Shown here piece by piece: positions 3,660 to 4,485 of a stretch of DNA of 64,000 nucleotides (positions are counted from its first letter, which is position 1; each line of letters begins with the position of its first letter). The notes beneath the pieces were generated by a model. The model searched no databases and was not told the origin of the DNA. It saw only the letters and a program-made list of their open reading frames with translations. Both the position numbers and the translations under genes were made by a program. Source of the stretch: Escherichia coli (GTDB lineage: Bacteria > Pseudomonadota > Gammaproteobacteria > Enterobacterales > Enterobacteriaceae); assembly GCF_003790525.1 (NCBI RefSeq), contig NZ_CP033635.1; one strand, 5' to 3'.

Positions 3660-3692
3660 AAAAAAAGGCCCCTGTTGAAATTGCAGGGGCCT
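3660..3692 (-). terminator. rho-independent terminator of cutC/MicL
   Basis: Stem aggcccctg/caggggcct followed on minus strand by a T-run. Confidence 0.7.
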
Positions 3693-3965
3693 GGTACGAG
3701 CAAGCATCATATTGGGCGACATGATGCAACGGTAAAAATCATTTGGCCTGATGGCGTTCAATGATTCCTTTCATTTCAGCAACCGCCGCCCCGTCTACGA
3801 CATAACGCGAATACTCGTCCGCGTGTGCATCTGATGACATGGACAATCCTTGATTACGATAACGCATCGGTGAGGCTTGCCACGCTCCCGCGGAGCTATG
3901 GACTTCCAGCACTCCGGCATCGAGGAAGTGGTGCAGGTTTTCCGCACGGATTCCTGCTCCGGCCA
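3660..3965 (-). ncRNA. micL: MicL (RyeF) sigmaE-dependent sRNA embedded in cutC 3' region
   Basis: Minus-strand GGAACTT (3994-4000) with about 16-nt spacer to a TCCAA-like -10 inside cutC; shared intrinsic terminator at about 3660-3692; span about 306 nt agrees with the known ~308-nt MicL. Confidence 0.5.
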
Positions 3966-4485
3966 TAATGATTGGAGCATCACCATGGGCAATAAGTTCC
4001 ATAATTTTTGATAAACCTTGCAGTGCGTCTGATTTTTGCCCTGATGTCAGTACCCGGGTAATGCCCAATTCCGCAAGATTATTGAGTGTATTTAAAGGGT
4101 TAGCGCACATATCGAAGGCGCGATGAAAAGTCACTGCCAGCGGACCGGCAGCAGCCATTATTTTTTCCATTCGTGGCATATCGACATTCCCGTCAACATC
4201 GAGAACGCCCGTCACCAGTCCAGGAAAACCTAATTCGCGGACTGTGCGCACATCCTCAAGAATGGCGGCAAATTCACCGTCGCTGTAGCAAAAATCACCA
4301 CCCCGTGGGCGGATAATCGGATGCACAGGGATCGTCACCCGCTGGCGCACGGATTTCAGTACCCCCAACGACGGCGTTAAGCCCCCCTCTTTTGGAGCTG
4401 CGCATAATTCAACTCTGTCAGCGCCGTTTTGCTGCGCCGTTAGCGCGCATTCCATGCTGTAACAGCAAATTTCCAGTAATGCCAT
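3739..4485 (-). CDS. cutC: copper homeostasis protein CutC
   Basis: 248-aa [42 protein letters not shown]... recognised as CutC. Confidence 0.93.

Follow-up and report, generated by a model that had tools for sequence, protein, structure and literature searches.

Does the 3' end of cutC in this Escherichia coli genome also hold the gene of a small RNA, with a promoter of its own inside the coding sequence, and if so, which small RNA is it and does it work here as it does in E. coli K-12? The question was raised by an earlier note, made from the sequence alone, which had pointed to a sigmaE-type promoter within cutC and to the sRNA MicL. The window analysed is a stretch of 64,000 nucleotides of E. 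coli (assembly GCF_003790525.1, contig NZ_CP033635.1), and all coordinates refer to it unless another record is named. The features of the locus are as follows.

4485..3739, minus strand: cutC coding sequence, 248 codons followed by the TGA stop codon at 3741-3739 (Pfam CutC, PF03932, E 9.8e-91); named cutC in both SMS-3-5 and K-12, and host to the promoter and to the 5' 228 nt of MicL
4001..4032, minus strand: A/T-rich stretch (...GGTTTATCAAAAATTAT) adjoining the -35 element upstream, roughly -65 to -36
3994..4000, minus strand: -35 element of the micL promoter (PmicL), GGAACTT, 7/7 against the sigmaE consensus
3977..3993, minus strand: promoter spacer of 17 nt, ATTGCCCATGGTGATGC, with G3984 where K-12 has C
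3972..3976, minus strand: -10 element of PmicL, TCCAA, 4/5 against the sigmaE consensus TCAAA
3660..3967, minus strand: MicL primary transcript, 308 nt, starting at U3967 (the K-12 RefSeq start is A3966, which gives 307 nt)
3739..3740, minus strand: processing site in the TGA stop codon, between G3740 and A3739, according to published K-12 work
3660..3739, minus strand: MicL-S, 80 nt, the complete cutC 3' UTR, 80/80 identical to K-12
3700..3730, minus strand: stem-loop A, MicL-S positions 10-40, in the MFE fold
3691..3702, minus strand: seed UGCUCGUACCAG, MicL-S +38..+49, complementary to lpp +16..+27
3659..3692, minus strand: intrinsic terminator of cutC and MicL, by fold and sequence
3351..2251, minus strand: torY, from the ORF list

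The minus-strand GGAACTT proposed in the earlier note lies at 4000-3994, within the ORF 4485..3739, and the elements follow one another on that strand in the order ...AAAAATTAT GGAACTT ATTGCCCATGGTGATGC TCCAA TCAT T ATGGCC.... The -10 element, which had been described as TCCAA-like and correctly spaced, is TCCAA at 3976-3972, and its 17-nt spacer falls within the range given by Rhodius et al. 2006 (PMC1312014). In that study, sigmaE promoters consist of a -35 element GGAACTT and a -10 element TCAAA, with a spacer of 15-19 nt (16 preferred), a preferred discriminator of 5 or 6 nt, and a distance of 25-28 nt from the -35 element to +1 (26 or 27 preferred); long spacers go with short discriminators in an inverse relation, and A/T-rich UP sequences are found upstream of the -35 motifs (PMC1312014). 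The distance from the -35 element of PmicL to +1 is 26 nt for a start at 3967 and 27 nt for a start at 3966, both within the preferred class. The discriminator of 4 or 5 nt, respectively, combined with the 17-nt spacer, fits the inverse relation. The departures from the preferred form are the -10 element, which matches at four of five positions, and the spacer of 17 rather than 16 nt. Moreover, the published transcript starts with U, although a purine is the preferred first base at sigmaE promoters; the K-12 RefSeq start is the adjacent A. The A/T-rich stretch 4001..4032 is a possible UP-like element of PmicL.

When both strands of the 64-kb window were searched with the pattern GGAACTTN{15,17}TCNAA, a single match was obtained, against 0.05 expected from 100 dinucleotide shuffles. 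A generic promoter scan found no sigma-70 promoter of note. In K-12, the fragment -65..+20 fused to GFP was sigmaE-dependent (Guo et al. 2014, PMC4102768), and the window differs from this fragment by one spacer base. That base, G3984 (C in K-12), is a natural polymorphism of the PmicL spacer and changes a CutC Arg codon (CGT) to Gly (GGT). A copper-sensitive R-to-H allele of cutC was placed between the -35 and -10 elements by Guo et al. 2014 (PMC4102768), and by our reading the codon of G3984 is the one affected in this historical allele.

The identity of the RNA was analyzed by a whole-window Rfam scan and by alignment to K-12. The MicL family (RF02654) matched 3967..3660 on the minus strand with 365.7 bits (gathering score 56, E 2.6e-110) and over its full length, model positions 1-308 of 308. 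The alignment with the published MicL sequence, which the earlier note had suggested as a check, revealed no divergence of the kind that would speak against MicL: K-12 micL (b4717) is identical to the window at 304 of 308 positions (98.7%), MicL-S at 80 of 80, and the -35 element, the -10 element, their spacing and the complete 80-nt 3' part are the same in both. The four substitutions in the RNA are at MicL +17, +25, +141 and +167 (window 3951, 3943, 3827 and 3801). By sequence comparison, these four and the one in the spacer are strain-level polymorphisms, which leave MicL-S and the promoter hexamers untouched. With a full-length family match, this level of identity and an intact lpp seed, the proposed identity as MicL stands: judged by its sequence, the stretch 3967..3660 (minus strand) is E. 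coli micL, an sRNA already known and a member of a curated Rfam family. Because MicL-S is identical to that of K-12 at all 80 positions and the promoter hexamers are identical as well, the micL locus of strain GCF_003790525.1 almost certainly works as it does in K-12. There is nothing new in the biology of MicL here, as its promoter within cutC, its processing and lpp as its sole target have been on record since 2014, with refinements added in 2018-2019.

The length of the transcript is 308 nt in the paper and in Rfam and 307 nt in K-12 RefSeq, a discrepancy of 1 nt. The K-12 MG1655 annotation places the ncRNA micL (b4717) at 1958441-1958747, overlapping cutC, which corresponds to 3966..3660 in the window. 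A start near 3965, about 306 nt upstream of the cutC terminator, had been anticipated; this was 1-2 nt off, the true values being 3967/3966 and 308 (or 307) nt. The published start at 3967 is located 226 nt before the stop codon (3967-3741 = 226), matching the geometry of Guo 2014. [quoted passage not shown] The first 50 kb of the window are 99.986% identical to SMS-3-5, with which the window shares the gene order argS, yecM, cutC, torY, torZ; the order of cutC and torY is the same in SMS-3-5 and K-12.

[quoted passage not shown] It is predicted to fold into two stem-loops followed by a U-tail, with a free energy of -28.8 kcal/mol (z = -5.15), a stability that no shuffled sequence out of 200 reached. 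The cutC terminator mentioned in the earlier note is real: it comprises a G+C-rich stem of 9 bp (3692-3684 paired to 3674-3666) closing a loop of 9 nt, followed by a run of seven T at 3665-3659, and its hairpin, spanning 3692-3666, corresponds to MicL-S positions 48-74. A generic terminator scan missed it because the 9-nt loop exceeds the limit of 8 set in the tool, and it was therefore confirmed by folding instead. The fold shows the architecture of Hfq-type sRNAs, a stem-loop followed by a Rho-independent terminator with a U-tail, and the 3' end of MicL is presumed to be the Hfq-binding end. In K-12, both forms of MicL bind Hfq and need Hfq for stability (Guo et al. 2014, PMC4102768). The cut that separates them is made by RNase E, and the two 3' stem-loops position the cleavage (Updegrove et al., bioRxiv 10.1101/341578).

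The seed UGCUCGUACCAG is mostly single-stranded and lies in the linker between the two hairpins. It pairs with the lpp sequence CUGGUACUGGGCG, taken from K-12, through 11 pairs and one bulge (-16.2 kcal/mol). The complement of the seed corresponds to lpp +16..+27 (the published range is +16..28), that is, to lpp codons 6-9, and 5424 of 5426 E. coli genomes carry the lpp 5' region at 99% identity or more. The whole-length interaction was also calculated: RNAduplex of MicL-S 1-47 against lpp -40..+102 gave -31.5 kcal/mol with z = -2.0, which is not distinctive, as an equal or better energy was found for 33 of 1000 shuffled controls and for 231 of 1800 random segments of the window. Whole-length duplex energy was consequently rejected as a discriminating statistic, and the published seed core was used as a consistency check. 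Computation alone would not single out lpp, and the link to lpp therefore rests on the published compensatory mutations, by which the pairing was proved (Guo et al. 2014, PMC4102768). In the same study, lpp was the sole target found by RNA-seq and ribosome profiling, and the copper sensitivity ascribed to cutC was traced to the missing MicL RNA and not to the missing CutC protein (PMC4102768). The computation is consistent with lpp being the target of MicL-S and does not establish it; repression of Lpp in strain GCF_003790525.1 itself is something that we infer from the sequence.

In order to compare the locus among enterobacteria, an exact 16-mer at MicL-S 41-56, the junction of seed and terminator, was searched in a species-representative genome collection. 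The search returned 77 loci, of which 36 are homologous enterobacterial cutC/micL loci; the others, which blastn showed to be chance matches in unrelated genomes, most of them not enterobacterial, were set aside. The 36 loci belong to Escherichia, Salmonella, Citrobacter, Kosakonia, Phytobacter, Lelliottia, Huaxiibacter, Pseudenterobacter and one Proteobacteria MAG. Since the loci were picked by this 16-mer, the conservation of MicL-S 41-56 among them follows from the selection itself, and the sample leaves out lineages whose seed has diverged. All 14 of the more divergent relatives tested passed the Rfam MicL threshold at full length, with 88-226 bits. The -10 element TCCAA is invariant in 36 of 36 loci. 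GGAAC is nearly invariant (TGAAC in two C. amalonaticus loci), and the last T of the -35 element alternates with A. The spacer keeps a constant length across the 36 loci and varies freely in sequence.

Conservation of codon positions was analyzed in the 31 loci with a complete cutC. Of its 248 third-codon positions, only 17 (6.9%) are invariant, and the three degenerate third positions in the motif cores, A3997, T3976 and A3973, are all among them. Where the -10 element begins, the overlapping codon encodes Ala, Val or Thr (GCT, GTT or ACT), with the final T kept. The amino acid thus changes while the third positions in the motif stay, which argues for selection on the DNA motif and not on the protein. 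In the same 31 loci, MicL-S 1-40 is 97.7% identical, versus 81% for the coding columns. The 228-nt MicL body showed no extra third-position constraint among these loci (0.647 versus 0.617 in upstream cutC), which fits MicL-S being the functional part and suggests that the 5' body of MicL may be a passenger.

Within the species, 5424 of 5426 complete E. coli genomes carry the promoter region -68..+13 at 95% identity or more, and 537 of these 5424 match the window over all 81 nt of the promoter sequence without a difference. Among the matches listed in a spread of 30 records, the two weakest have unchanged -35 and -10 elements.

Three other readings of the locus have to be weighed against a sigmaE promoter that gives rise to MicL. 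The motifs might be a chance pair in plain cutC coding sequence, the region giving just the 3' end of a yecM-cutC mRNA; the -10 element is imperfect, the spacer is 17 nt long, and the sigmaE pattern was matched once or more in 5 of the 100 shuffled windows. However, chance would have had to place the pair precisely where the mapped MicL start requires it and to keep its synonymous sites unchanged from genus to genus, although 93% of third positions vary. Such a reading would also leave aside the 3' UTR, which is conserved more than the coding sequence, the full-length Rfam MicL match and the near-identity to the K-12 locus, at which mutation of the promoter leaves hardly any of the RNA (PMC4102768). 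We consider the chance of its being correct to be close to nil. A different possibility is that the promoter is real but minor, weakened for instance by G3984, and that MicL-S comes mainly from RNase E processing of the cutC mRNA. This second route to MicL-S has been reported in K-12 (Guo et al. 2014, PMC4102768), and G3984 falls in the same codon as the historical copper-sensitive allele. Nevertheless, since the spacer is free to vary between species that keep the -35 and -10 elements, position 3984 is unlikely to be critical; the identical 81-nt promoter occurs in the 537 E. coli genomes mentioned above, and the -35 element, the -10 element and their spacing are the same as in K-12, whose promoter mutant is nearly devoid of both RNA forms (Guo et al. 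2014, PMC4102768). A predominantly processed origin in this strain is accordingly very improbable.

The last reading concerns the transcript itself. The 308-nt RNA opens with U-AUG-GCC, its AUG at 3966-3964 is in frame with cutC and begins an ORF of 75 codons that ends at the cutC stop, and K-12 RefSeq micL begins precisely on the A of this AUG. The RNA could thus serve in addition as a leaderless or near-leaderless mRNA for the C-terminal 75 residues of CutC and be a dual-function RNA, a reading absent from the text of Guo 2014, in which the word "leaderless" occurs 0 times (PMC4102768). On the other hand, the AUG is simply a conserved Met codon of CutC, and third-codon conservation in the MicL body (0.647) reveals no constraint beyond that seen elsewhere in cutC (0.617). 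The C-terminal 75 residues of CutC are unlikely to adopt a folded structure by themselves, which also counts against a translated product. Finally, MicL-S by itself reproduces the phenotypes (Guo et al. 2014, PMC4102768). We hold translation of this RNA to be highly unlikely; if true, it would make MicL a dual-function RNA in envelope stress and would provide a role for the otherwise unconstrained 228-nt 5' body. An alternative-frame ORF of 65 aa (3992..3795) starts upstream of the MicL start and was rejected as unsupported.

The preferred reading thus remains a cutC-embedded sigmaE promoter giving MicL, which is processed to MicL-S, and no result of the analysis conflicts with it. In the proposed mechanism, sigmaE RNA polymerase would start at this promoter in envelope stress or as the cells enter stationary phase; RNase E, placed by the two 3' stem-loops, would cut within the cutC stop codon and release the 80-nt MicL-S; and both MicL forms would bind Hfq, these steps being taken from K-12 experiments. 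The seed between the hairpins would then pair with lpp codons 6-9 and block translation, and the untranslated lpp mRNA would be degraded. [quoted passage not shown] The motifs, geometry, fold, seed and conservation that enter this scheme were read from the sequence analysed here, and the roles of sigmaE, Hfq, processing and repression come from the K-12 literature.

The earlier note had also stated that annotation based on ORFs misses MicL, and this is the case. The SMS-3-5 RefSeq/PGAP record (NC_010498.1) shows cutC alone, with no micL feature, unlike the K-12 MG1655 record, in which micL is present as an ncRNA. In three cutC-region searches, all 54 E. coli records among the matches listed carry cutC alone under the match. 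A 501-nt query around micL matched 5424 of 5426 complete E. coli genomes, SMS-3-5 among others at 100%. The nested sRNA micL is therefore a systematic annotation gap: routine RefSeq annotation of SMS-3-5 omits it, although its promoter and RNA sequence are found in 5424 of the 5426 genomes searched. In such strains, cutC mutants, transposon hits and copper-sensitivity phenotypes should be read with the published K-12 MicL result in mind. The case also shows that reading of raw sequence can recover a gene nested within a coding sequence.

Several other observations were made elsewhere in the window. Two overlapping ORFs at 10915-13144 (plus strand) lie between cheZ and flhB, on the strand opposite to both. 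The ORF of 502 aa matches the PADLOC model of an anti-phage dGTPase (E 5.8e-71) and contains a Pfam HD domain, and its partner of 250 aa has no Pfam or PADLOC match. Only 107 of the 5426 complete E. coli genomes contain the pair, which is probably an accessory defence island of the dGTPase type with an uncharacterised partner. A full-length Rfam match to C0465 RNA (RF00116, 111.6 bits) is located at 19578-19655 (plus strand), in the cheW-tar intergenic region and antisense to the chemotaxis genes; its 3' end has a hairpin (AACCCGATG...CATCGGGTT) followed by just a short T run, and the RNA is without annotation in the SMS-3-5 RefSeq record. Three tRNA genes for Gly, Cys and Leu (glyW-cysT-leuZ) at 37881-38180 (minus strand), downstream of pgsA, appear ordinary. 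Between yecU and uvrY, at about 41142-41213 (NC_010498.1 1263944-1264015), the SMS-3-5 annotation gives a 72-nt fragment as a pseudogene, an incomplete "transcriptional regulator".

Among known systems, the closest is MicL (RyeF) of K-12 itself (b4717, RF02654; Guo 2014, Genes Dev 28:1620), which has the same locus, the same -35 and -10 elements and the same start and end; MicL-S and the lpp seed are identical, and the difference lies in the four substitutions of the 5' body and the one in the spacer (3984). Like MicL, MicA and RybB are Hfq-dependent sRNAs transcribed from sigmaE promoters, and they act in envelope stress as repressors of abundant outer-membrane proteins. They are, however, free-standing intergenic genes with 31 mRNA targets together (Guo 2014, PMC4102768), whereas the gene of MicL lies within a coding sequence, and MicL itself undergoes processing and has a sole reported target, lpp. 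With the sRNAs derived from 3' UTRs, MicL has in common that the terminator of the host mRNA is shared and that the seed lies in the 3' UTR. These sRNAs are divided into type I, transcribed from an internal promoter (DapZ, MicL), and type II, produced by processing alone (CpxQ, SroC). Unlike those which arise by a single route, MicL combines its own sigmaE promoter with trimming by RNase E, and it can also be cut from the cutC mRNA.
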